A stretch of 57,297 bases of DNA from an uncultured virus (IMG/VR IMGVR_UViG_3300006930_000006). Its lineage: Duplodnaviria > Heunggongvirae > Uroviricota > Caudoviricetes. A program made the position numbers and the translations under genes. How positions within the stretch are numbered: the first letter of the stretch is position 1; each line of letters starts with the position of its first letter. Location: IMG/VR virus record IMGVR_UViG_3300006930_000006; one strand, 5' to 3'. Of this stretch, positions 2,668 to 54,048 are shown piece after piece. The notes under the pieces are model-generated. The model was not told where the DNA came from. It did no database searches and worked only from the letters and a program-made list of their open reading frames with translations.

Positions 2668-3426
2668 ATGCTTTGTGTAGATTTCATATCAGATATTCAT
2701 AGTACTTTCTATGATATAAATGATAGAATGCTGGACCTAGGTAAGACCAATTCTCATATTTTGGTTATTGCCGGTGATATCGCACACGGTCCAGAAACTA
2801 CCATAACAACTTTAACTGATATTTGTAGAAATTATGACTATGAGCATATACTTTTCGTAGCTGGCAATCACGATTATTATAATGCAGAAAAGAGTACACC
2901 AGATTATATAGATGAAATATACAAATCTTTCTTTGATGAACATAAGACAATTAAGTTTCTAACCAGAAATAAGTCCTATGTTATTGACGGATATAGATTT
3001 ATTGGTTGTAATGGGTGGTATTCAGTAGATAACAATCCTTCTTGGTATACTAGATTTAATGATAGCAGATGTATCGGATTTAGTGATGGTGCAATGCCAG
3101 AAGATCTTATGGATAAAGATTATAACTATCTAGAACGTGAGATAAAGAAGTCCAATGAAAAATGTATTCTGGTAACTCACACTGCTCCATTTAAGGAACA
3201 AGCTTTATATAAAGGTGAATATACTGACGTTACCCAGTTTTATTATAATCCAAAACTTGGTGAATTAGCAAGCGAACTAAACTTAGTTGGTTGGATCTTT
3301 GGACATACTCACACACCAACATTGGAACTTAAGAACGGAATTCCATTTGTCAATAATCCGATGGGATACCCCCGTGAGAATATAAACACAGGATTACAAT
3401 CAGTTATAATAGATGGGAGAAAGTAG
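2668..3426 (+). CDS. Calcineurin-like metallophosphoesterase
   Basis: Motifs SDIH, AGDI, GNHD, THT, GHTH. Confidence 0.92.
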   Translation: MLCVDFISDIHSTFYDINDRMLDLGKTNSHILVIAGDIAHGPETTITTLTDICRNYDYEHILFVAGNHDYYNAEKSTPDYIDEIYKSFFDEHKTIKFLTRNKSYVIDGYRFIGCNGWYSVDNNPSWYTRFNDSRCIGFSDGAMPEDLMDKDYNYLEREIKKSNEKCILVTHTAPFKEQALYKGEYTDVTQFYYNPKLGELASELNLVGWIFGHTHTPTLELKNGIPFVNNPMGYPRENINTGLQSVIIDGRK

Positions 3427-3764: not shown

Positions 3765-4829
3765 ATGGTATCATTTTTGAAAAAACTAACTGAAGCTGCT
3801 AATAATGAATATGCAGCTATTGTAGAAGAAGGATTGGATGCTGATGTGGTATCTTATGTAGATACTGGCAGTTATGCACTCAATGCTTTATTATCAGGAT
3901 CTATCTATAAAGGTATTGCTGGCAATAAAGTAGTTGCTTTAGCAGGTGAAAGTTCTACTGGTAAAACTTTCGTAGCATTAGGAATTGCAAAAGCTTTTCA
4001 AGATGCTAACAAAGACGGACAAGTAATCTACTTTGATAGTGAAAGTGCTATTACTTCTGAGATGATTAAAGAACGTGGTATGGATCCAACTAGAATGGCT
4101 ATTCTACCAGCAGATACAGTAGAAAACTTTAGAACTCAGATGATGAAGATTCTAAAAGAACTTGAAGAGACCAAAGAGTCAGAACGTCAACCAGTTTTAT
4201 TTGTATTAGATTCCCTTGGTGAGTTATCAACATCAAAGGAAATGAACGATACTTTAGAAGGTAAAGAAACTCGTGATATGACTCGTGCGCAAGTAGTTAA
4301 ATCTTTATTCCGTGTTATTACATTAAAACTTGGCAGATTAAAATGCTCAATGATAGTAACTAACCACGTTTATGATGTCATTGGATCTATGTTTCCTCAA
4401 AAGAAAATGGGTGGTGGTTCTGGATTAGTTTATGCTGCTTCTCAGATTATCTCATTATCTAAACGTAAAGACAAAGATAAAGAAAATGAAGTAACTGGGG
4501 CAATTCTTACAGCTTCATTGCAGAAAAGCCGTCTAACTAAAGAGAATAGATCTGTATCAACCTTAGTATCTTATGACCACGGATTGGATAGATATTATGG
4601 TTTACTTGATATTGCAGAAAAGTATGGTATCTTTACCAAAGTATCTAATAAGTATGAAGTTGCCAAGGATGTAAAGGTATTTGAAAATGCTATATTAAAA
4701 AATCCAACAAAGTACTTTACAAAAGAAGTTTTAGACCGTATAGATGAAGCGTGCGCAAAAGAGTTTTGTTATGGTAAAAATGAAGTAGTACCAGCAGAAG
4801 AAGTTGATGAAACAGTAACGGAAGAGTAA
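3765..4829 (+). CDS. uvsX: RecA-like recombinase UvsX
   Basis: Walker A GESSTGKT, FDSE, LDSLG, DMTRA, MGGGSG; precedes gp41. Confidence 0.96.
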   Translation: MVSFLKKLTEAANNEYAAIVEEGLDADVVSYVDTGSYALNALLSGSIYKGIAGNKVVALAGESSTGKTFVALGIAKAFQDANKDGQVIYFDSESAITSEMIKERGMDPTRMAILPADTVENFRTQMMKILKELEETKESERQPVLFVLDSLGELSTSKEMNDTLEGKETRDMTRAQVVKSLFRVITLKLGRLKCSMIVTNHVYDVIGSMFPQKKMGGGSGLVYAASQIISLSKRKDKDKENEVTGAILTASLQKSRLTKENRSVSTLVSYDHGLDRYYGLLDIAEKYGIFTKVSNKYEVAKDVKVFENAILKNPTKYFTKEVLDRIDEACAKEFCYGKNEVVPAEEVDETVTEE

Positions 4830-40372: not shown

Positions 40373-40843
40373 ATGATACCAAACCAAAAGTTAGGACAAG
40401 TTTTAGATATTGCCGAAGATATCGGTAGAGAACTAAAACCTCTAATGAATATCACACCACGGGAAGAGAAAATCATTGATGTAGAACCAGAATCCACCCC
40501 TGGTAATATAGACGATGACTTTGATTATGCAAGAAAGCAACTAAAGAACGTGATAGATACCGGTAATCAAAATATGCAAGAACTTATGCAACTTGCAGCT
40601 ATGACACAAGAACCAAAGATCTATGAGCAGATTACTAAAATGATGAAAGAGATAGTAACTGCCAATGAAAAGTTGATACAACTTTATAAAACACGTAAGG
40701 ATGCTACCAGCAAGTTCCCTACTCCAGAAAATGGTTCTGTACAAAATATAACCAATCAGACTTTACTTGTTGGATCTACCAAGGAAGTGCTTGAAATGAT
40801 TGGTAATAAAAAGAAAGATACATCCGAAGATATAAAGGTCTAA
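40373..40843 (+). CDS. 16: Terminase small subunit (gp16)
   Basis: DDFDYARKQL, EPKIYE, TNQTLLVGSTKE; precedes gp17. Confidence 0.9.
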   Translation: MIPNQKLGQVLDIAEDIGRELKPLMNITPREEKIIDVEPESTPGNIDDDFDYARKQLKNVIDTGNQNMQELMQLAAMTQEPKIYEQITKMMKEIVTANEKLIQLYKTRKDATSKFPTPENGSVQNITNQTLLVGSTKEVLEMIGNKKKDTSEDIKV

Positions 40844-40859: not shown

Positions 40860-42437
40860 ATGAAAGAATTCAAAGGTCCACAGTATTATCTTAACAATCC
40901 AAGACTTAAAGCTGAGAACGTTAAGGTTAACTTTACTCAAGAGCAAATAGACGAACTTATCAGGTGTAAAACTGATATTAAGTACTTTGCTAATAATTAT
41001 GTAAAGATTATTAACCTGGATAAGGGTCTAATGAATATCAATCTTTATCCATACCAAGAAAGACTTGTCCAGAGTTACTACGATAACAGATTTACGATAG
41101 TTCTATCCCCAAGACAAACTGGTAAGTCTACCAGTGGTCTGATTTATCTATTACACGCAGTTATATTCAATGATTATCACGAATGCGCAATCCTTGCCAA
41201 TAAACACGCAATCGCATTGGAACTGCTTGGACGTATTAAACTGATGTATGAAAATCTACCTTTCTGGATGCAGATCGGTATCGTGGAATGGAATAAGAGT
41301 TCTATTGAGCTGGAAAATGGTTCTAAGATTACTGCAAGTGCTACAAGTGCTTCCGCAGTGCGTGGGCGTTCAATCTCAAGTGTGCTCCTTGATGAGTTCT
41401 CTTTTATTTCCAATGACTTAGCTCAAGAGTTTATAAGTTCCGTATTCCCTACTATCTCATCTGGTAAGAATTCAAAGATTATTATATCATCTACACCAAA
41501 TGGACTTAATCATTTTTATCAGATGTGGACGGATGCCGAGCAAGGTAATTCTTTATTCTGTCCAATTAAGGTTAACTATTGGGACGTTCCTGGTAGAGAT
41601 GACGCCTGGAAAGAAAAGATGCTTAAAACGATGTCCTTAGATAAGTTTGAGCAAGAATACAATAATGCTTTTCTTGGATCTTGTGATACATTGATATCTG
41701 CAACTAAACTACGTAATTTGGTAAATGGTAAACCAGAGTATCAGAAAGATGGTCTTCGTGTATATGAATACCCTAAGACAGATGAAGAAAGCAAAAAAAG
41801 TAATGTTTATATGCTAACCGTGGATTGCTCAGAGGGTAAAGGACAGGACTATAATGCGTTTAGTGTGATAGATATTACAGAGTTCCCGATGCGTCAGGTT
41901 GCAACTTTTTATGATAATACAATGAGTTATTTACAGTTTCCAGATGTTATCTATGAAGTTGCCAGAAAGTTCAATAATGCTTATGTATTATTAGAGACCA
42001 ATTCGGTTGGACAAGAGGTTGGGCATATACTTTTACACGAGTGTGAATATGAAAATATAATCTTTACGGAAAAAGGTGTAATGGGTATTAGAACCAATAA
42101 GAACGTAAAGAAGATTGGTTGTATAAATCTAAAGGAACTAATAGAGCAAGATAAGTTAATTCTAACCGATGAAAATACCATAACAGAACTAAACAACTTT
42201 ATTAGATATGGTTATACCTATTGTGCAGATGATGGACACCACGACGACTTGGTAATGGGTCTAGTTCTATTCGCCTGGTTCTCTTCAAAAGATGATTTCA
42301 AGGATATGACGGATCTTAGTTTTAGAAACACTATCAATACTAACTTTGATGACTTTATGCCAGTAACTTATATTGATAATGGGGTAGAAGATAAAGATAC
42401 TAATAGATTGTATAATGATACTTCATTGATAATATAA
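40860..42437 (+). CDS. 17: Terminase large subunit (gp17)
   Basis: YLNNPRLK, PRQTGKST, LLDEF, SSTPNG, DCSEG..D, HDDLVM. Confidence 0.97.
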   Translation: MKEFKGPQYYLNNPRLKAENVKVNFTQEQIDELIRCKTDIKYFANNYVKIINLDKGLMNINLYPYQERLVQSYYDNRFTIVLSPRQTGKSTSGLIYLLHAVIFNDYHECAILANKHAIALELLGRIKLMYENLPFWMQIGIVEWNKSSIELENGSKITASATSASAVRGRSISSVLLDEFSFISNDLAQEFISSVFPTISSGKNSKIIISSTPNGLNHFYQMWTDAEQGNSLFCPIKVNYWDVPGRDDAWKEKMLKTMSLDKFEQEYNNAFLGSCDTLISATKLRNLVNGKPEYQKDGLRVYEYPKTDEESKKSNVYMLTVDCSEGKGQDYNAFSVIDITEFPMRQVATFYDNTMSYLQFPDVIYEVARKFNNAYVLLETNSVGQEVGHILLHECEYENIIFTEKGVMGIRTNKNVKKIGCINLKELIEQDKLILTDENTITELNNFIRYGYTYCADDGHHDDLVMGLVLFAWFSSKDDFKDMTDLSFRNTINTNFDDFMPVTYIDNGVEDKDTNRLYNDTSLII

Positions 42438-42440
42438 ATA
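42433..42440 (+). promoter_or_regulatory. Late promoter driving a short non-coding transcript
   Basis: TATAAATA overlapping the gp17 stop; predicted +1 (42446) is the first base of a hairpin. Confidence 0.7.
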
Positions 42441-42445
42441 GTATT

Positions 42446-42520
42446 ATAGCACTTTTCTCCTCCGGTGCTATATTCTACGGTGGCTAGGTCTTCCCCTCCG
42501 TTTACTTGGCCACCGACTTT
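42446..42520 (+). ncRNA. Candidate ~75-nt two-hairpin small RNA with anti-SD (CCUCCG) loops
   Basis: Hairpin 1 ATAGCAC/GTGCTAT with loop TTTTCTCCTCCG; hairpin 2 CGGTGGCTAGGT/ACTTGGCCACCG with loop CTTCCCCTCCGTTT; no ORF; GC-rich in an AT-rich context. Confidence 0.6.
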
Positions 42521-42552
42521 ATAAACTTGGGATATTGTGATTTTTTAGATAT

Positions 42553-42560
42553 TATAAATA
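42553..42560 (+). promoter_or_regulatory. Late promoter for tnpB, followed by a 5'-UTR hairpin (42567-42599)
   Basis: TATAAATA; GAGG..AGATTC-TGGAC-GAATCT..CCTC. Confidence 0.75.
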
Positions 42561-42628
42561 CTATACGAGGATAAAGATTCTGGACGAATCTATACCCTCT
42601 AAACAACACCAATAAAGGAACTATTGAT

Positions 42629-43783
42629 TTGTCTGACGGTATTTATATAAGAACTTCTAAACATAGTCTAATGTTATCTAACACTGGTAAAATAGAAATG
42701 CTAGATTGTATTTTTATTGACTATGAGAATCAACTAAGAATGTATATCCAAGATATATTAGAAGAAAAAATACCATTAAAATCATTATTATCTTCACCTT
42801 TACTACCAGGTTATACTATACATCATTCTGGTTGGAAGCAGATAATATACAAGCAAGCTTCTGAAATTGTTAGATCTAATATAAACTATACTAGGAATAG
42901 AACCTTTAAAAGATACAAGAAGGTATATAGTTACTTCTTAAAAAATGGTAGACAATATAAGTTTACCTCAAAACACTTTAAAGAATTAAATATAAACTAT
43001 AAGAAAAGAATTAAAATAAATCTAAAGAATATCAATATAAGCTTGGATTCTAGAGTTTTTAATATACAAAATAATTTTCTTCTTATTAAAACCCCATATT
43101 CTAAATCTATAAAATTTCCTGTACAATTATATAACTATATGAAAAAGTATAATAATTGTAAAAGAAAGAATACCGTACGACTATCAAATAAAAATGGTAA
43201 GTATTATGTCAACTATTTTTGGGAATGTAAAACACCAGATAAGAAGACTACTGGTAAAAAGATAGGAATTGATATAGGTTATAATAAGTTAATTAGTACT
43301 TCTGAAGGTGAATTCTATGGCAAAGAATTAAAAGATCTTTATAATAGAATTGCAAAGAAGCAAAGAGGTAGTAGAAGATATGAAAAACTACTTAAATATA
43401 AAACAGATGAAATTAATAGATTATGCAAGAAATTAGTAAGTGATACAGAATTACATACATTATATGTAGAAGATCTTAAATTAGTTAAGAATAATACTAA
43501 GTTATCTACAAATCTTATGAATAAAATGCAATACTGGTCTTATAGACAAGTATTAGAAAAATTAGGTTTCCTTAGTGAAATGGAAGGTTTCCAGGTTACT
43601 AAGGTTGCTCCAGCATATACAAGCCAAAGATGCTCGTGTTGTGGGGTTATAATGAAAACCAATAGAAAGGGGGAGTACTATAAGTGCTCTTCGTGTGGTG
43701 TGGAAATGGATGCTGATTATAATGCAGCTATTAATATATTACAAAAAGGTGATATGCAGCCTTTGCTTTCGGAAATAAATTAA
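42629..43783 (+). CDS. tnpB: TnpB (IS200/IS605-family RNA-guided nuclease), standalone
   Basis: RuvC-I GIDIG, RuvC-II VEDL, TSQRCSCCG...CSSCG zinc ribbon, RuvC-III DADYNAAINI; no tnpA nearby. Confidence 0.93.
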   Translation: MSDGIYIRTSKHSLMLSNTGKIEMLDCIFIDYENQLRMYIQDILEEKIPLKSLLSSPLLPGYTIHHSGWKQIIYKQASEIVRSNINYTRNRTFKRYKKVYSYFLKNGRQYKFTSKHFKELNINYKKRIKINLKNINISLDSRVFNIQNNFLLIKTPYSKSIKFPVQLYNYMKKYNNCKRKNTVRLSNKNGKYYVNYFWECKTPDKKTTGKKIGIDIGYNKLISTSEGEFYGKELKDLYNRIAKKQRGSRRYEKLLKYKTDEINRLCKKLVSDTELHTLYVEDLKLVKNNTKLSTNLMNKMQYWSYRQVLEKLGFLSEMEGFQVTKVAPAYTSQRCSCCGVIMKTNRKGEYYKCSSCGVEMDADYNAAINILQKGDMQPLLSEIN

Positions 43784-43801
43784 CGCCGATTTTTTAGTAA
43801 G

Positions 43802-43809
43802 CATAAATA
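43802..43809 (+). promoter_or_regulatory. Variant late promoter (CATAAATA) for gp18
   Basis: Same GATTTTTTAG-N4 upstream context as the tnpB promoter. Confidence 0.6.
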
Positions 43810-43902
43810 TAGACGAAGATATATAAAGTTTTTCTATATCATAAGAAATTGTGCCTCTGAAATGAGGTACTTTTGCAAAAGTAAAAAGGAGTCATAAAAT
43901 AA

Positions 43903-45528
43903 ATGGTTACACAATTATCTCCTGGTGTTTTAGTAACAGAAACAGACCAATCAGCTTACGTTCCAGCTGTCGCTACCTCTAATGGTGGTACAGTATTGGA
44001 AGCTGCTTGGGGACCTGTAGATGTTATCACAACGATTGATAGCGAGCAAAACCTCGTTTCTCAATTCGGTAAACCAGGAAGTTCAAATTATGAAGGTTGG
44101 TTTGCAGCAGCTAGTTTCTTAGCTTATGCTACTAATCTTAAATTAGTGCGCGTAGTAGGAACTGGTGCTTTGAATGCTACGGCATCTGCTTCAGCTGGCA
44201 CTACTGGTCAACTAATTAAAAATCAAGACGAATATGAAAATACTTCGTTTAGTACATCAACAGATCTTTGGATTGCAAAATATCCAGGTGCTCTAGGTAA
44301 TTCTATTCAAGTTGCTTGGTGCGATACTGCTGGATTTGATGTAGTAGATAGTTCTGGTGATTATACTTGGGCATATAGAGACCTATTTGATAGTGCTCCA
44401 GATGCTTCACAATTCCATATTGTAGTAGTTGATGTTTTGGGTAATATCACTGGTACTGCTGGAACCGTATTAGAAACTTTTGACGATGTTTCTTTAACAT
44501 CTACAGCAAAACGCTTTGATGGTTCTACAAATTATGTAGTTGAAAGATTAAAAACTAACTCAGCATATATCAATGTTGCTAAAGCTTCATTGTTAACTGG
44601 TGCTTCTTCTGGGGTAACTTTAGCAGGTGGTGCCAATGGTGCTACTGCAGCTAATGCAGACTTAGAAGCTGGTTGGGCATTATTCCAATCAGTTGAAGAT
44701 GTTGACGTAACTACCTTATTTGTTGGTGGTGCATCTTCTACAGTTGGTAAATGGGTAATTGATAATATCGCAGAAGTAAGAAAAGATTGCGTTGTTTTCG
44801 TATCACCTGCTAAGACAGACTGCGTAAACGTAAGTGTTATTAGTACAATTTTAACCAATGTAAAAGCGACAAGAACCGTATATGGTAATTCTAACTATGC
44901 ATTTATGGATAGTACTTGGAAATATCAATACGATCGTTATGCAGATACTTATCGTTGGGTTCCACTCAATGGTGATATTGCTGGTTTAATGGCAAAAACT
45001 TCTAACGATGTAGATGCTTGGTTTAGTCCAGCAGGTCTAAATCGTGGTCGTATTAAGAACGTTGTTAAGTTTGCATATACACAAGCACAGACTACAAGAG
45101 ATGAATTATACAAATCACAAATCAATCCTTGTGTTATCTTCCCTAATGAAGGTGCTATACTATATGGAGATAAAACATTACAAACAAAACCTAGTGCTTT
45201 TGACCGTATCAATGTAAGAATGTTATTTATTACATTAGAAAAATCAATCGCGATAGCTTCAAAATATGTGTTGTTTGAGTTCAATGACGAAATAACAAGA
45301 CGCTCATTTATAAATACGGTAGAACCTTTCTTAAGAGATGTTCAAGGTCGTAGAGGTGTTGTTGATTATCTCGTAATATGCGATGAAACCAATAATACTG
45401 GTGAAGTTATAGATCGTAATGAATTCGTTGCTAATTTGTTTATTAAGCCAACTCGTTCAATCAACTTTATTAAACTAAACTTCATTGCTACCCGTACTGG
45501 TGTATCTTTTGAAGAAATAGTAGCTTAA
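43903..45528 (+). CDS. 18: Tail sheath protein (gp18)
   Basis: SPGVLVTETD, WGP, FGKP, KYPGALGN, WFSPAGLNRG, GDKTL, SAFDRINVR, FEFND, IKPTRSINFI. Confidence 0.98.
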   Translation: MVTQLSPGVLVTETDQSAYVPAVATSNGGTVLEAAWGPVDVITTIDSEQNLVSQFGKPGSSNYEGWFAAASFLAYATNLKLVRVVGTGALNATASASAGTTGQLIKNQDEYENTSFSTSTDLWIAKYPGALGNSIQVAWCDTAGFDVVDSSGDYTWAYRDLFDSAPDASQFHIVVVDVLGNITGTAGTVLETFDDVSLTSTAKRFDGSTNYVVERLKTNSAYINVAKASLLTGASSGVTLAGGANGATAANADLEAGWALFQSVEDVDVTTLFVGGASSTVGKWVIDNIAEVRKDCVVFVSPAKTDCVNVSVISTILTNVKATRTVYGNSNYAFMDSTWKYQYDRYADTYRWVPLNGDIAGLMAKTSNDVDAWFSPAGLNRGRIKNVVKFAYTQAQTTRDELYKSQINPCVIFPNEGAILYGDKTLQTKPSAFDRINVRMLFITLEKSIAIASKYVLFEFNDEITRRSFINTVEPFLRDVQGRRGVVDYLVICDETNNTGEVIDRNEFVANLFIKPTRSINFIKLNFIATRTGVSFEEIVA

Positions 45529-45539
45529 GGAGATAAATT

Positions 45540-46076
45540 ATGGCTAGTAATACAAATATAAACGATTTTATTGCACAGTTTAAAGGTGGTGCAAGGTCAA
45601 ATCGTTTTCGTGTACAATTATCATTTCCTTCTTACGTGACCGTTCCAACAACGTCATCTATTTTCTATTGTAATAGTACAGACCTTCCAACTTTAACCAC
45701 TGGTATTACCACGGTTGAGTATATGGGTCGTAAGATTGCAATACCTGGTGATAGACCTTCTATTGAGTGGTCAGTTGGTGTTCGTTTGGATCGTGATTTT
45801 GAAGTTCGTAAAGCTTTTGAGCAATGGCAAAATGGCTTAATGTCCTTCACAGATAATGCTAGAATCCCTGGTGATGTAAAACAAGGGCACTGGCAAGATC
45901 TCACGGTACAGCAATTAGATGTAGATGGTTCTACGATTATTAGAACTTATACAATTCATAATGCTTGGCCAAGTGATATCGGCACTGTTAAGTTGAATTG
46001 GAATGATGTGGATAAAGTAGAGGAATTTGATGTAAAGTTCCAAGCTACTCATTTTACAACTAACGATATAAATTAA
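45540..46076 (+). CDS. 19: Tail tube protein (gp19)
   Basis: GGARSNRF, YMGRKI.IPGDR, FEQW, QQLD, AWPSDIG, VEEFDVKF. Confidence 0.95.
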   Translation: MASNTNINDFIAQFKGGARSNRFRVQLSFPSYVTVPTTSSIFYCNSTDLPTLTTGITTVEYMGRKIAIPGDRPSIEWSVGVRLDRDFEVRKAFEQWQNGLMSFTDNARIPGDVKQGHWQDLTVQQLDVDGSTIIRTYTIHNAWPSDIGTVKLNWNDVDKVEEFDVKFQATHFTTNDIN

Positions 46077-46127: not shown

Positions 46128-47018
46128 ATGAAGAGATTTACACAATTTATAAAAGAAAATAAAAGTATAATCAAGGAAGCTGAGTTAGTACAAAGCACCA
46201 AAGATTATATAGAGAAGAATGCCGATTCTTGGGATAAGATTGCACACCAAGCAGAACCAGTTTTAGATAAGTCTGCTTCGGTTCTTGCTAAATATAATAC
46301 AATATCCGAAGTATTCGCGATGATGAGACACTTTGATGAAGTTATGGATTTTATGACTACCATTAAAGTAAAATATAAAACAATGACCAATGAGCAACTA
46401 AAAGAATCTGTTATGGAAGTAATGAAACATATTACTGATATCCAAAGATTCCTTGGTATGTTTCAAGATAGACCAGAATCTGCAGATGCTAAGAAAGCAG
46501 TTGCTAAGATTAAGTCTGATTGCTACATCGCAGTTGGTGGATTATTACAGTTATTAGGTAAGAATCTGAAAGAAGGTTTAGAAGAATTTGCACTTATTAG
46601 ACTTAACTTTACTGAAGATAAAGAAGCTGTAAAGAATTTTTTACGTAAATACTATTCAACGTCTGGTGTTGATAAAACTGCAGATGCTGGTTTTCTTAAA
46701 ATATATATGCAAAAACCAGTTGAAGCAACAGTCAATAAGTTTAAAGACCACTTTGCCATAAGATCTATTGAGTTTATCAGTGGTAATAAAGAAGTATTTA
46801 ATCAATTAAAGAAGTTATTGCCAAGCAATAAGTTTCTGGAATCTAAACTTAACGAAGGAACTGTAGCTGCTGTATTTTATCACAATGAAGATGGTAAAGA
46901 AACAGTAGTCAAAACCTTTCCTAATAAAGCAGATGCTCAAAAGTTTGTAGACCAGAAGAATAAAGAAATTGAAAAAACTGGTAATATAGACCAAGAATAC
47001 TATTACGTAGAGGCTTAG
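46128..47018 (+). CDS. Putative internal head protein with capsid-targeting sequence
   Basis: N-terminus MKRFTQFIKE resembles the T4 IP CTS MKTYQEFIAE; several (I/L)xE sites. Confidence 0.6.
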   Translation: MKRFTQFIKENKSIIKEAELVQSTKDYIEKNADSWDKIAHQAEPVLDKSASVLAKYNTISEVFAMMRHFDEVMDFMTTIKVKYKTMTNEQLKESVMEVMKHITDIQRFLGMFQDRPESADAKKAVAKIKSDCYIAVGGLLQLLGKNLKEGLEEFALIRLNFTEDKEAVKNFLRKYYSTSGVDKTADAGFLKIYMQKPVEATVNKFKDHFAIRSIEFISGNKEVFNQLKKLLPSNKFLESKLNEGTVAAVFYHNEDGKETVVKTFPNKADAQKFVDQKNKEIEKTGNIDQEYYYVEA

Positions 47019-47025
47019 AACTAAT

Positions 47026-47045
47026 GGAGGATCTTCGGATCCTCC
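47026..47045 (+). repeat. C(UUCG)G hairpin, copy 2
   Basis: GGAGGATC-TTCG-GATCCTCC, near-identical to 46086-46107. Confidence 0.8.
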
Positions 47046-47048
47046 TCT

Positions 47049-47056
47049 TATAAATA
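47049..47056 (+). promoter_or_regulatory. Late promoter for gp20
   Basis: TATAAATA. Confidence 0.8.
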
Positions 47057-47094: not shown

Positions 47095-48714
47095 GTGGCA
47101 AGTTGGCAAGGTTTTAAGTTATTCAATAAAAATGGTGAAAGATTTATAGATGATAAGAAGTACCCATCTGTAGTTGCTCCAACAACGGATGCTTCTTATG
47201 TTATTGATAATAGCAATATGGCTGCTGGCTTTATTGGTTATACACTAACTTTCAATCCTCAAAATGACTCAGAATCCCAGTTAATTAGAACTTATCGTGA
47301 GTTAACTTCGCATCCAGAAGTAGACAATGCTATAGATGATATTGTTTGCGAAGCTATTGTAAAAGACGAAGATGTTTACCCAATACATCTTATATTAGAT
47401 TACCTAGATAAAGAAAAGTATTCAGAAGAAGTAAAACAGAAGATCCACGAAGCTTTTGACCATATTCTAAAGCTTATGAAGTTCAACGTTGATGGATATG
47501 ATTACTTTAGACAGTTTTACGTAGATGGCCGTATTTACTTTCAGATTATCACGAATAAAGAAAACTTAAAAGATGGTATTGTTGAAGTCAGACCAATATC
47601 ACCATACGATATTCGTAAAGTTGCTACCTATCAGACAGAACGTCAGCAAGACGGTATGACTGTTTTTGAAACTATCAATGAGCATTTTGTTTATGCAACC
47701 AATGCTTTAGCTTCACAAGCGCAAGGTATTATGCTACCAATAGAAAGTGTAGCTTATGCAACTTCTGGTTTATATTCATACTTTGAAGTTAAGAACGTGC
47801 AGATTAGTACTCCTGGCACTTCAACAGAAATTAAAAAGTTTCCTATTAGTTATTTACATAAAGCGATTAAACCTATTAACCAAATGAGAATGATGGAAGA
47901 CTCACTGGTTATCTATCGTATTACAAGGGCACCAGAACGTCGTGTATTTTACATTGATGTTGAGAATCTACCAAAACTTAAAGCAGAGCAATATATTCAA
48001 AGCTTAATCCATAAGTATCGCAATAAGATGCTTTACGATGCTTCAACCGGGCAGACCAAAGAGCAACCACAAGTTATGAGTATGCAAGAGGATATCTGGT
48101 TAAGTCGCAGAAACGGTAAGAATTCTACGGAGGTTGCTCAGCTAACTGGTGGGCAGAATCTTGGAAATTTAGATGATGTGATCTACTTCCAAAAGAATAT
48201 GTATCGCGCATTAAACGTTCCATTGAGCAGAATCAATCCAGAAAATGGATTTAGTCTTGGTAAAGCATCTGAGATAACCCGTGACGAAATCAAGTTTGGT
48301 AAGATGATAGATCGTTTACAAAGTCGTTTTGCTAAGATCTTTCACGATTTACTAAGAACCCAACTATTGATTACTGGTGTTATAGATCCAGAAGACTGGG
48401 AAGATTTACAGAATACAATGGTAATTAAGTTCAATACCAATTCATATTTTGAAGAACTAAAGGATGCTGAAATTCTAACCAATCGTATTGCCTTATTAGA
48501 GCACGTTCAGCCATATATTGGTAAATACTTCACCGAGGAATATGTAAAGACACAGATTCTAAAATTGAATGCTAAGGACGATCTTTTAATACAAGATACC
48601 AATGACGCTGAGGAAGATCTTGCAAGTCCTACTGCGGCAGAAGATTTAGGTAATACAGAAGACCAAACGGATGAAATAGAAAAGATTATAGGAGAGATAA
48701 ATGGATCTAAGTAA
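47095..48714 (+). CDS. 20: Portal protein (gp20)
   Basis: LIRTYR..HPEVDNAIDDIV.EAI, YVDGR, SYLHKAIKPINQMRMMEDSLVIYRITRAPERRVFYIDV, EITRDE. Confidence 0.98.
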   Translation: MASWQGFKLFNKNGERFIDDKKYPSVVAPTTDASYVIDNSNMAAGFIGYTLTFNPQNDSESQLIRTYRELTSHPEVDNAIDDIVCEAIVKDEDVYPIHLILDYLDKEKYSEEVKQKIHEAFDHILKLMKFNVDGYDYFRQFYVDGRIYFQIITNKENLKDGIVEVRPISPYDIRKVATYQTERQQDGMTVFETINEHFVYATNALASQAQGIMLPIESVAYATSGLYSYFEVKNVQISTPGTSTEIKKFPISYLHKAIKPINQMRMMEDSLVIYRITRAPERRVFYIDVENLPKLKAEQYIQSLIHKYRNKMLYDASTGQTKEQPQVMSMQEDIWLSRRNGKNSTEVAQLTGGQNLGNLDDVIYFQKNMYRALNVPLSRINPENGFSLGKASEITRDEIKFGKMIDRLQSRFAKIFHDLLRTQLLITGVIDPEDWEDLQNTMVIKFNTNSYFEELKDAEILTNRIALLEHVQPYIGKYFTEEYVKTQILKLNAKDDLLIQDTNDAEEDLASPTAAEDLGNTEDQTDEIEKIIGEINGSK

Positions 48715-52462: not shown

Positions 52463-53950
52463 ATGGAAAACATAGATAACATAATAGCAGAATACAAGTC
52501 CGGCAAGACCATATCTCAACTCAATAAGATATATGGAATACCACGCAAGACTATCACAAAAATCCTTATTGACGGAAAGGTTCTAATGAGGCCAGAGGGA
52601 TTATTCACAGATTCTGATGGAATTGATAAGACCGAAATCAAGATATCAAAAGATGCCTTATATCAGATGCGTGTAGTAGATGCCAAATCATACTCACAGA
52701 TTGCAAAAGAAACGGGTCTCAGTGTATGGTTAGTGGAGGACAGGTGTAAGTACTACGGCTTCCCCGGACAAGTGTATAGACACGCATATAATTACAGAGA
52801 GGTGCCTTCTAAAGATGTATTATATGATTTGTATCACAATAAATTACAATCTCAATCAGATATAGCCAGAACTTATAAAACGACACCTTCTACAGTAAAG
52901 AAGTGGTTGGTAAAAAATGATATACAATTAAGAGCACATAAAGAAGTTATTGGTAAGGCTATGAAAAAATACGCTGATGACTTCAAAGAAGTTAATGGTT
53001 ATTATCCACAGGCAGACCCAGAATTAGTAAAGCGTTCATTACAGACACGTTTAGATAGATTTGGTACTACATTTATTCAACGAGATCCAAACAAAGAATA
53101 TACAGAAGACAAAGTTCGTAATTATCTTAATAGTATTGGTGGTAATTTTGTAAAAAGTGATTATTCTATACTTGGTAATAAAGAACTAGATATGGTTGAC
53201 CACGACAAAAAAATAGCTGTAGAATACTGTGGTTTATACTGGCATCACGAATTGACTAGATGTAATGATGTTTATCATTGGGAAAAGTATAAAAAGTGTC
53301 AAGAAAAAGGTTATAGACTAATTACCATCTTTGAAGACGAGTGGTTACTTAAACAAAATCAAGTAAAGAACTTTTTATTTTCTATTGTCGGTACTTCAGA
53401 AGTTGTATATGCTAGAAAGTGTGCAATAAAACAACTTGAAAAGTATCAAGCTAATAAGTTCTTTGAAGATAATCATATACAAGGTGAAGCAAATAGTATC
53501 CTTTATGCTTATGGTTTAGAATACAATGGACAACTAATTGGTGTTATATCTTTTGGTTTACATCATAGAAACAATGATAAGTCTATTATCGTATTGAATA
53601 GATTAGCATTTGTACACGGTATTACTGTTATTGGTGGTGCTTCTAGATTATTGCAAGCTTTCGTAAAAGAATATGGTTCTAAGTATAAAAAGATAATCAG
53701 CTGGTCAGATAATAGATGGTCTACGGGTAATGTTTATGAAAAACTTGGTTTTATTAAAGAAGTAGAATATAAGCGTGATTATTCATACTTTGTAGAAGGA
53801 ACTAAGCAATTAAGATTTCCTAAGCAATCAATGACTAGAAAAGCTCTAGGTTGTAAACCTGGTGAGACTGAGCATCAAAAAGCATTAGAACTTGGTTATT
53901 TACGTGTTTGGGATTGTGGTAAAATTAGATGGACTTATAACCTTGTATAA
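52463..53950 (+). CDS. Hef-like free-standing homing endonuclease (HTH repeats + Vsr-like nuclease + conserved C-terminal domain)
   Basis: ATG at 52463; tandem HTH-like segments; ELDMVD..KIAVEYCGLYWH, LITIFEDEW, GGASRLL, SDNRW..GNVYEKLGF, WDCG. Confidence 0.8.
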   Translation: MENIDNIIAEYKSGKTISQLNKIYGIPRKTITKILIDGKVLMRPEGLFTDSDGIDKTEIKISKDALYQMRVVDAKSYSQIAKETGLSVWLVEDRCKYYGFPGQVYRHAYNYREVPSKDVLYDLYHNKLQSQSDIARTYKTTPSTVKKWLVKNDIQLRAHKEVIGKAMKKYADDFKEVNGYYPQADPELVKRSLQTRLDRFGTTFIQRDPNKEYTEDKVRNYLNSIGGNFVKSDYSILGNKELDMVDHDKKIAVEYCGLYWHHELTRCNDVYHWEKYKKCQEKGYRLITIFEDEWLLKQNQVKNFLFSIVGTSEVVYARKCAIKQLEKYQANKFFEDNHIQGEANSILYAYGLEYNGQLIGVISFGLHHRNNDKSIIVLNRLAFVHGITVIGGASRLLQAFVKEYGSKYKKIISWSDNRWSTGNVYEKLGFIKEVEYKRDYSYFVEGTKQLRFPKQSMTRKALGCKPGETEHQKALELGYLRVWDCGKIRWTYNLV

Positions 53951-53953
53951 ATA
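53946..53953 (+). promoter_or_regulatory. Late promoter for the tRNA
   Basis: TATAAATA ending 6 nt before the tRNA 5' G. Confidence 0.75.
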
Positions 53954-53958
53954 CCCAC

Positions 53959-54048
53959 GGGCACTTGTGTGAGTGGTTGAAACAGATAGTCTTGAAAACT
54001 ATTAGACCAGCGATGGTCTCGCAAGTTCAAATCTTGCAGTGTCCGCCA
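53959..54048 (+). tRNA. tRNA-Ser (anticodon UGA), encoded CCA
   Basis: Acceptor GGGCACT/AGTGTCC, G discriminator + CCA; anticodon arm ATAGT-CTTGAAA-ACTAT; long variable arm AGACCA..TGGTCT; T-arm GCAAG-TTCAAAT-CTTGC. Confidence 0.95.

Follow-up and report, generated by a model that had tools for sequence, protein, structure and literature searches.

Insertion sequences (IS) of the IS607 family carry a TnpB nuclease that works with a guide RNA, and such systems, known from CboIStron (PMC10690162) and ISFba1 (PMC11061315, PDB 8iaz), are among the closest described relatives of the element analyzed here, a tnpB gene with its flanks in a 57,297-nucleotide (nt) stretch of DNA from an uncultured virus. 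This stretch, in the following called the window, belongs to a 94,378-bp IMG/VR virus record (IMGVR_UViG_3300006930_000006) that is estimated to be approximately 52% complete, or about half a genome. According to the accessible parts of the two papers (PMC10690162, PMC11061315), the scaffold of the guide RNA (omega RNA) ends at the right end of the IS607 element, the guide is the flanking DNA that follows, and the target-adjacent motif (TAM) of TnpB is the target of the transposase. Homing is a published role of TnpB (Meers et al. preprint 10.1101/2023.03.14.532601; PMC10690162), shown in bacterial chromosomes and reportedly on plasmids (PMC11870625, PMC13565253), and in the available text of a 2026 review homing of TnpB between phages in mixed infection is presented only as a theoretical possibility (PMC13565253). 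Already known, as far as the accessible text of these reports goes, are tnpB-only IS elements in T4-like phages (2010, PMC2853527) and the IS607 TnpB together with its guide RNA (2023-2024); new here are the anatomy of a subfamily and a particular locus in a phage for which both guide and target are predicted.

The following comparisons go by the accessible parts of the papers cited. The TnpB in the window has the fold and the catalytic triad in common with the TnpB proteins of CboIStron (PMC10690162) and ISFba1 (PMC11061315), its relatives likewise occur with a serine-recombinase tnpA, the guide would likewise lie just past the right end, and homing into vacant sites is the role described for these systems. 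The 184-nt RNA of ISFba1, however, lies wholly downstream of the gene (PMC11061315), whereas the predicted scaffold in the window is mostly inside the open reading frame (ORF) and ends 21 nt after the stop codon, and the published IS607 TAMs are TGGG and AGGAG/GAGGG, whereas the window offers only an A/T-rich candidate and is without tnpA. Transposase-less tnpB elements in virulent T4-like phages have been described as ISCaje1-3 of the Campylobacter phages CP220 and CPt10 (PMC2853527), but these elements, which we compared by description, belong to IS200/IS605, have ATTTT as target and are found in several copies and sites, while the window has a single IS607-type copy, located in a late promoter. 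With respect to position, the free-standing homing endonucleases SegF, SegB and Mob of the T-even phages (PMC13565253) likewise lie between conserved genes, are absent in relatives and are expected to cut the allele of the relative during mixed infection; in our case the target would be recognized by RNA, and self would be distinguished from non-self by the presence of the insert, not by substitutions. The mode of spread that we propose, where the element is copied into homologous DNA after RNA-guided cleavage, has its counterpart in the TnpA-independent spread on plasmids (PMC11870625, PMC13565253), although a multicopy plasmid was concerned there (PMC11870625) and co-infecting phages would be concerned here. 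Finally, TldR of temperate phages is likewise a phage-borne TnpB relative with a guide RNA, but it is without the nuclease residues (PMC10705468), which the TnpB in the window keeps (D215, E281 and D363).

We consider it somewhat probable that the window carries a tnpA-less element of the IS607 family, consisting of tnpB and its guide-RNA end, which lies where the sheath gene of a T4-like phage has its late promoter and homes by means of RNA-guided cutting.

An intact tnpB between the terminase and sheath genes

The tnpB gene is found at the junction between the gene for the large terminase subunit upstream and the tail sheath gene downstream, all three on the + strand:

40860-42437, + strand: terminase large subunit gene (gp17-like, TerL homologue; Pfam Terminase_6N 7.3e-22 and Terminase_6C 5.5e-15; PF03237, PF17289)
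42553-42560, + strand: late-type box TATAAATA of tnpB (motif scan)
42567-42599, + strand: hairpin in the 5' untranslated region (5'-UTR) of tnpB (folding)
42629-43783, + strand: tnpB, 384 amino acids (Pfam, alignment, AlphaFold model, fold search)
43903-45528, + strand: tail sheath gene (gp18-like; Pfam Phage_sheath_1C and Phage_sheath_1; phrog_23 1.5e-118)

The start codon of tnpB is TTG, with an AAAGGA Shine-Dalgarno sequence (42614-42619) 9 nt upstream, and the GC content of the gene is 26.8% compared to 35-37% in the neighbouring genes. The protein matches the Pfam family Cas12f1-like_TNB (PF07282, E 1.1e-19) and “transposase” families of PHROG (phrog_506, 9.2e-38); the score for OrfB_IS605 (PF01385) was 27.7 bits, under the cut-off of 30.5. 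When TnpB was aligned with 25 homologues, the RuvC triad D215/E281/D363 and the zinc ribbon CxxC..CxxC (C335/C338/C353/C356) were invariant in all 26 sequences. An AlphaFold model built on this alignment has a mean predicted local distance difference test (pLDDT) value of 86.6, and Foldseek matched it over its whole length to AsCas12f (4.8e-16), the TnpB of ISFba1 (8iaz, 4.8e-13) and the TnpB of ISDra2 (8h1j and 8exa, 3.0e-12), with CnCas12f1 also among the best matches. The closest homologue is 49% identical, and of 85 alignment columns with a conservation of 90% or more in the family, the protein departs from 11, where other members depart from 0 to 15. The departures include three nearly invariant residues near the C-terminus (R373K, Y376M and S379L) and the region 164-171, which has one deletion and four changes. 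Judged by alignment and model, the protein, although divergent, is an ordinary TnpB and apparently intact. A domesticated TnpB of the TldR type was rejected because the three nuclease residues are present.

An earlier reading of this DNA, made from its letters without database searches (the sequence-only reading), had described a standalone, catalytically intact TnpB with its own late-type TATAAATA and 5'-UTR hairpin, placed between terminase and sheath genes about 120 nt from gp18 and lacking a tnpA or serine recombinase. All of this is borne out by the present analysis. The flanking genes are identified by their Pfam and PHROG matches, the spacer between tnpB and gp18 is 119 nt long and contains hairpins at 43807-43839 and 43851-43870 as well as a palindrome at 43871-43886, and searches of the 94,378-bp record, about half a genome, gave no match to Resolvase (PF00239) or Y1 transposase (PF01797). 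A second IMG/VR record matches at 100% identity over 7,690 bp, and since it is identical it provides no independent allele and is silent on decay.

A tnpA-less member of the IS607 family

For a comparison with relatives, 300 homologous proteins with E <= 1e-10 were found among the candidates scored. At the DNA level 94 of 156 pattern matches in viral contigs and 98 of 198 in species-representative genomes were confirmed, 80 being kept in either case, and 46 near-full-length loci (40 viral and 6 cellular) were studied. Around these, 32 ORFs of at least 60 amino acids lie on the same strand as tnpB and end at most 400 nt from its start or overlap it slightly; 29 of the 32 were scanned with Pfam. 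Four loci (L100, L102, L167 and L180) have a Resolvase-domain (serine-recombinase) ORF whose 3' end overlaps the tnpB start or lies at most about 45 nt from it, which is the arrangement of IS607. The remaining 42 of the 46 loci have no Resolvase-domain gene directly 5' of tnpB among the candidate ORFs scanned.

Family copies on the same contig resemble each other only from a point between 3 and 144 nt before the ATG to a point 4-92 nt past the stop codon, and therefore the mobile unit is essentially tnpB and a very short tail. In other phage contigs such tnpB-only units of the IS607-type family occupy several sites that are unrelated to each other, and the close members of the subfamily are mostly found in viral contigs (about 45 compared to 5-6 cellular assemblies by a rough hand count), mostly without tnpA. 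In the 94-kb record tnpB is single-copy. The sequence-only reading had pointed out that IS ends together with copies at unrelated loci would speak for an ordinary IS, and this is what is found for the family; it is not found for the window element itself, which has no copies at unrelated loci. By comparison with its relatives, the window copy is a tnpA-less derivative of the IS607 family.

Some observations on individual relatives may be added. In L109, L113, L115 and L125 the tnpB frame has a TGA (at about 4105-4120 in each) after “DAD”, where relatives have Y, T or L, and conserved residues continue behind it, which suggests that TGA is a sense codon in these phages. In L094, L099 and L104 the place of tnpA is taken by an ORF of about 186 amino acids (ending at 3004) that overlaps the tnpB start and combines a DPBB domain like that of lytic transglycosylases with a C-terminal tail resembling RepB/ribbon-helix-helix proteins. 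At the same position L132 and L134 have ORFs of 68-70 amino acids that by eye resemble the lone N-terminal helix-turn-helix of an IS607 TnpA (no Pfam hit). A TnpB homologue with 36% identity (L117, 1270-6784) lies within a phage tRNA array with 14 tRNA hits in the surrounding 7 kb, and around a 39% identical homologue (L003) none of nine neighbouring ORFs matches a PHROG.

The guide-RNA end

The 3' part of tnpB and the sequence that follows contain these features:

43668-43804, + strand: predicted omega-RNA scaffold, mostly in the 3' end of the ORF (covariance model)
43745-43764, + strand: window copy of the family hairpin, arms 43745-43750 and 43759-43764 (read from the sequence and folded)
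43788-43804, + strand: right-end terminus GATTTTTTAG-TAAGCAT (family motif ..TTAG-TAAC-TAT; the end could instead be 43810)
43805-43824, + strand: predicted 20-nt guide at the start of the gp18 leader (placed by the right end of the family; from 43811 with the alternative end)

The relatives share a hairpin with the consensus AGAGG..CCUCU, which lies within the codons for “..HRGxYxPS..” near the 3' end of tnpB. Its six pairs are formed in 97.7% of the alignment cells of 23 sequences, and changes on both sides are seen at 4 pairs and in 17 cells. None of 500 shuffles equalled either the pairing or the covariation score, the pairing fell to 44-67% when the partner was slid by 1-3 columns, and RNAalifold recovered the same helix. 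In the window a consensus G-C pair (alignment columns 107/126) has become A-U by a double change that keeps the pair. The 3' arm of the window sequence was misplaced by MAFFT, and therefore some of its pairs were counted as unpaired in the covariation test.

Downstream of the hairpin the family has the terminus ..TTAG-(T/C)AAC-(T/G)AT, beyond which independent copies diverge completely. Different flanks follow ..AACTAT in L109/L113/L125/L115 and in L099/L100/L104, and the six copies of the L130 group end with ..GCTGACTGT before their flanks diverge. In the window TTAG and 7 further nt are found at the family spacing, 21 nt after the stop codon, with 9 of 11 consensus positions matching. The sequence-only reading had seen no recognizable IS end, which marks the limit of reading by eye, as the right end at 43804 becomes visible by comparison with the relatives. 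A covariance model built from 22 relatives, with the window left out, found the window at 43668-43810 with 75.1 bits (E 3.6e-15).

By these data the window keeps the features of the family's guide-RNA scaffold, ending at the right end of the element, the RNA itself being a prediction. Since the hairpin and the terminus are both kept, 43805-43824 is predicted as the guide, in agreement with the earlier proposal of a guide from the gp18 promoter or leader. With fewer than four mismatches this 20-mer has no other match in the 94-kb record, and in the viral collection only the identical second record matched. Searches with Rfam gave no family other than tRNA in the window and only tRNAs in the loci of 20 relatives, and consequently RAGATH-18 is, as far as the Rfam model can see, not the RNA of this subfamily.

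Promoter boxes, direct repeat and element borders

The borders of the element have to be considered together with the promoter boxes and a direct repeat:

42433-42440, + strand: first TATAAATA box, overlapping the gp17 stop codon (sequence); ATAT at 42432-42435 is a candidate left border or TAM
42445-42472 and 42478-42515, + strand: two GC-rich hairpins with the C-rich loops CUCCUCC and CCCCUCC (folding)
42539-42573, + strand: DR-L, left copy of a 35-nt imperfect direct repeat, containing the promoter box of tnpB
43788-43821, + strand: DR-R, right copy of the direct repeat (repeat alignment)
43802-43809, + strand: CATAAATA, imperfect late-type box for gp18 that straddles the end of the element (sequence)

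The motif TATAAATA, which we take to be the T4-type late promoter motif, occurs 21 times in the window compared to 13.35 +/- 3.46 times in shuffles; the + strand carries 18 of these occurrences. Three boxes of the form (T/C)ATAAATA are found in the region, at 42433, 42553 and 43802. The two copies of the direct repeat are identical at 29 of 35 positions with one gap, giving a score of 33 compared to 17.4 +/- 2.7 in shuffles, which was reached by 2 of 2000 shuffles and by none of 1940 random windows. The left half of DR-R is the family terminus, and therefore duplication of a phage promoter is not enough to explain the repeat.

For the left border there are three candidates, 42436, 42536 and 42553, each located directly after an ATAT (42432-35, 42532-35 and 42549-52), and joining the ATAT of any of them to 43805 restores TATAAATA without a mismatch upstream of the gp18 leader. 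The element would accordingly measure about 1.25-1.37 kb, with its right end at 43804 or possibly at 43810.

The terminase-sheath junction in relatives

To see the junction in other phages we used 159 loci with relatives of the sheath gene, all of them distant with a sheath identity of at most 51%; both genes could be placed in 118. A TnpB at the gp17-gp18 junction was found in none of the 159. The gap between the two genes is estimated at less than 450 nt in 111 of the 118 loci, and in the other seven it is 519-1338 nt and contains small unrelated ORFs. When the 16 closest sheath relatives were measured, the spacer was 54-85 nt in 15 of them, each with one NATAAATA box. Although these relatives are distant, their short spacers favour the longest putative insert, 42436-43804; both GC-rich hairpins would then be part of it.

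Among the loci L320, L029, L040, L255, L293 and L298, cyanophage-like relatives have small ORFs inserted in the spacer, one type being cysteine-rich, approximately 75 amino acids long and ending in ..YPDW, another having approximately 78 amino acids and a CxxC motif. The spacer of L251 contains an ORF of 397 amino acids with an SGGKDS motif on the opposite strand. The ORFs in these spacers show the junction as an occasional landing site for accessory genes.

Proposed homing in mixed infection and alternative explanations

In the proposed mechanism tnpB would be transcribed late from TATAAATA at 42553, the 3' part of the transcript (about 43668-43804) would fold into the scaffold of the omega RNA, and the guide would be supplied by the 16-20 nt that follow (43805-43824). 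The resulting ribonucleoprotein (RNP) would cut an uninterrupted gp17-gp18 spacer where an A/T-rich TAM, possibly ATAT, is followed by sequence matching the guide, and the target site ..TATAAATATAGACG.. would be the late promoter of the sheath gene in a relative without tnpB. During mixed infection the genome with tnpB would serve as the template for repair of the break, so that the element is copied in and neighbouring markers are favoured, while the phage's own copy would be spared because the end of the element, GCAT, replaces the TAM. The cutting of co-infecting relatives without tnpB, which the sequence-only reading had also proposed, is what ordinary TnpB homing logic predicts and would require no new function. 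Homing in this sense assumes no benefit to the phage, and most likely the element is a selfish one that homes in the ordinary way, not a weapon that has been newly domesticated.

The locus offers a concrete case that can be tested, having a defined nuclease, a predicted scaffold and 20-nt guide and, as putative target, the promoter of a late gene that is essential. In addition, it represents an IS607 subfamily whose guide-RNA hairpin lies within the C-terminal codons (“HRGxYxPS”) and whose non-coding tail is very short. If inactive, the element is one more stranded IS. In a bolder and more doubtful version, which we put forward tentatively, the phage is lytic and T4-like and its TnpB is an RNA-guided nuclease for “intronless homing”, with a TAM and target that together form the late promoter of the sheath gene, an essential gene, in relatives lacking tnpB. 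The nuclease would spread and exclude competitors in mixed infection without a transposase, and the two-hairpin RNA next to it may be a regulator or a second partner resembling a guide RNA. If this version is true, it would provide the first worked example of homing by TnpB from one co-infecting phage to another.

Several observations weigh against homing by a tnpA-less element. An empty allele was not found; in viral and metagenome contigs even the nearest homologues of the sheath are only 50-51% identical. Two public sequencing runs with this DNA contained the source contigs only, with no joints or variants, and are silent on absence; two other public runs gave only scraps less than 90% alike to the stretch, and when the left flank of L109 was used as a probe for the empty site of a relative, only four filled contigs matched. 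A tnpA could lie elsewhere in the genome, given that the record covers an estimated 52% of it. The window protein has K at position 373, where all 25 other sequences have R, the terminus is off consensus at 2 of 11 positions (TAAG-CAT compared to TAAC-TAT), and much of the covariance-model score reflects coding conservation; moreover, the end preferred by the model is 6 nt further, at AAATAT. IS607 chemistry does not predict a 35-nt direct repeat, and none of 41 other family loci has a comparable one (no z > 4, the highest being 3.0). The leftmost conserved letters, judged by eye, are ATAT in two subgroups (6 sites) and ATTA in a third (2 sites). The conserved left borders are suggestive of ATAT as TAM, but since the subgroups are inconsistent this was not used as a result.

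The direct repeat is also the starting point for another explanation, in which a cassette of promoter and gene entered, and was possibly lost, by homologous recombination between the 35-nt repeats, independently of any TnpB or TnpA activity. Such a cassette would resemble the promoter/stem-loop cassettes known from T4-type phages, the repeat is significant and specific to this locus, and both of its copies contain a late-type box. We nevertheless regard this origin as rather unlikely, since the left half of DR-R is the family right-end motif and hence element sequence instead of a phage promoter, and even such an entry would be compatible with homing as the later action of the nuclease. Less likely again is a stranded relic that arrived once, is immobile without a transposase and persists with an inactive or targetless RNP because a deletion would disturb sheath expression. 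The single copy, the lack of a tnpA in the record, the off-consensus terminus, the distance to the nearest homologue and the altered residues at the C-terminus and at 164-171 would all fit a relic; the full-length ORF with all catalytic and zinc ligands, the confident model, a number of departures at conserved columns within the range of the family and a guide-RNA hairpin kept by compensatory change would not. The sequence-only reading had preferred a domesticated nuclease, kept by the phage for its own benefit, and not that of the element, to destroy co-infecting relatives. The late-type box 5' of tnpB is of the phage's own kind, the gene lies between essential genes with an essential-gene promoter as its predicted target, and killing of competitors is known for free-standing homing endonucleases (PMC13565253, in the text available). 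Nothing, however, sets this explanation apart from selfish homing. The kept family hairpin and transposon-type right end, the tnpB-only units elsewhere and a GC content below that of the neighbours speak against domestication, and the absence of TnpB at the junction in all 159 relatives gives no sign of long-term retention in a lineage. We therefore find domestication improbable and prefer the selfish homing element.

A further alternative concerns the stretch between gp17 and tnpB. With 52% GC in a genome of 33% GC, the two-hairpin stretch adjoins the terminase stop codon and the first TATAAATA box; the fold z is -3.69 for 42436-42630, and the loops CUCCUCC and CCCCUCC are complementary to ribosome-binding sites of the GGAGG type. 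It lies outside the unit bounded by the repeat but inside the insert under the longest border model. In the viral collection a 20-mer from it matched only the identical second record, and the 94-kb record has no second copy; a dispersed mini-element was rejected on the absence of further copies in either. The stretch from about 42445 to 42564 could be a second, gene-less omega-like RNA, transcribed from TATAAATA at 42433 and giving TnpB a second guide. It has its own promoter box and a place within the longest insert, 42469-42564 is the second-best hit of the family model in 6 kb, the second hairpin aligns with the family hairpin and the end with ..ACUAU, and both modules consist of a hairpin, 23 nt and then GATTTTTTAG. 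But the covariance hit is not significant (E 0.98, 7.7 bits), the 23-nt linkers are alike by eye at only 7-8 of 23 positions, which is chance level, the hairpin has no other copies in the viral collection, and a small RNA of the anti-Shine-Dalgarno type or a structure at the end of a transcript would explain the C-rich loops equally well. A second guide RNA is accordingly the least probable of the explanations considered here, and we regard it as highly improbable.

Neighbouring genes and other features

The surroundings of the locus, as annotated by Pfam/PHROG scans, folding and Rfam, are as follows:

40373-40843, + strand: small-terminase-like gene
45540-46076, + strand: tail tube gene (Pfam/PHROG scan)
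46128-47018, + strand: ORF without assignment, 296 amino acids, between the tail tube and portal genes (Pfam/PHROG scan)
47095-48714, + strand: T4-type portal gene (Pfam/PHROG scan)

The 296-amino acid ORF had no significant match in either the Pfam or the PHROG scan. Directly 5' of the TATAAATA box of the portal gene there is a GC-rich perfect hairpin (47020-47056, GGAGGATC ttcg GATCCTCC), which is terminator- or stabilizer-like and similar in kind to the hairpins after gp17. A tRNA gene at 53946-54045 (Rfam, 53.3 bits) lies immediately 3' of a TATAAATA box, from which late transcription may follow.

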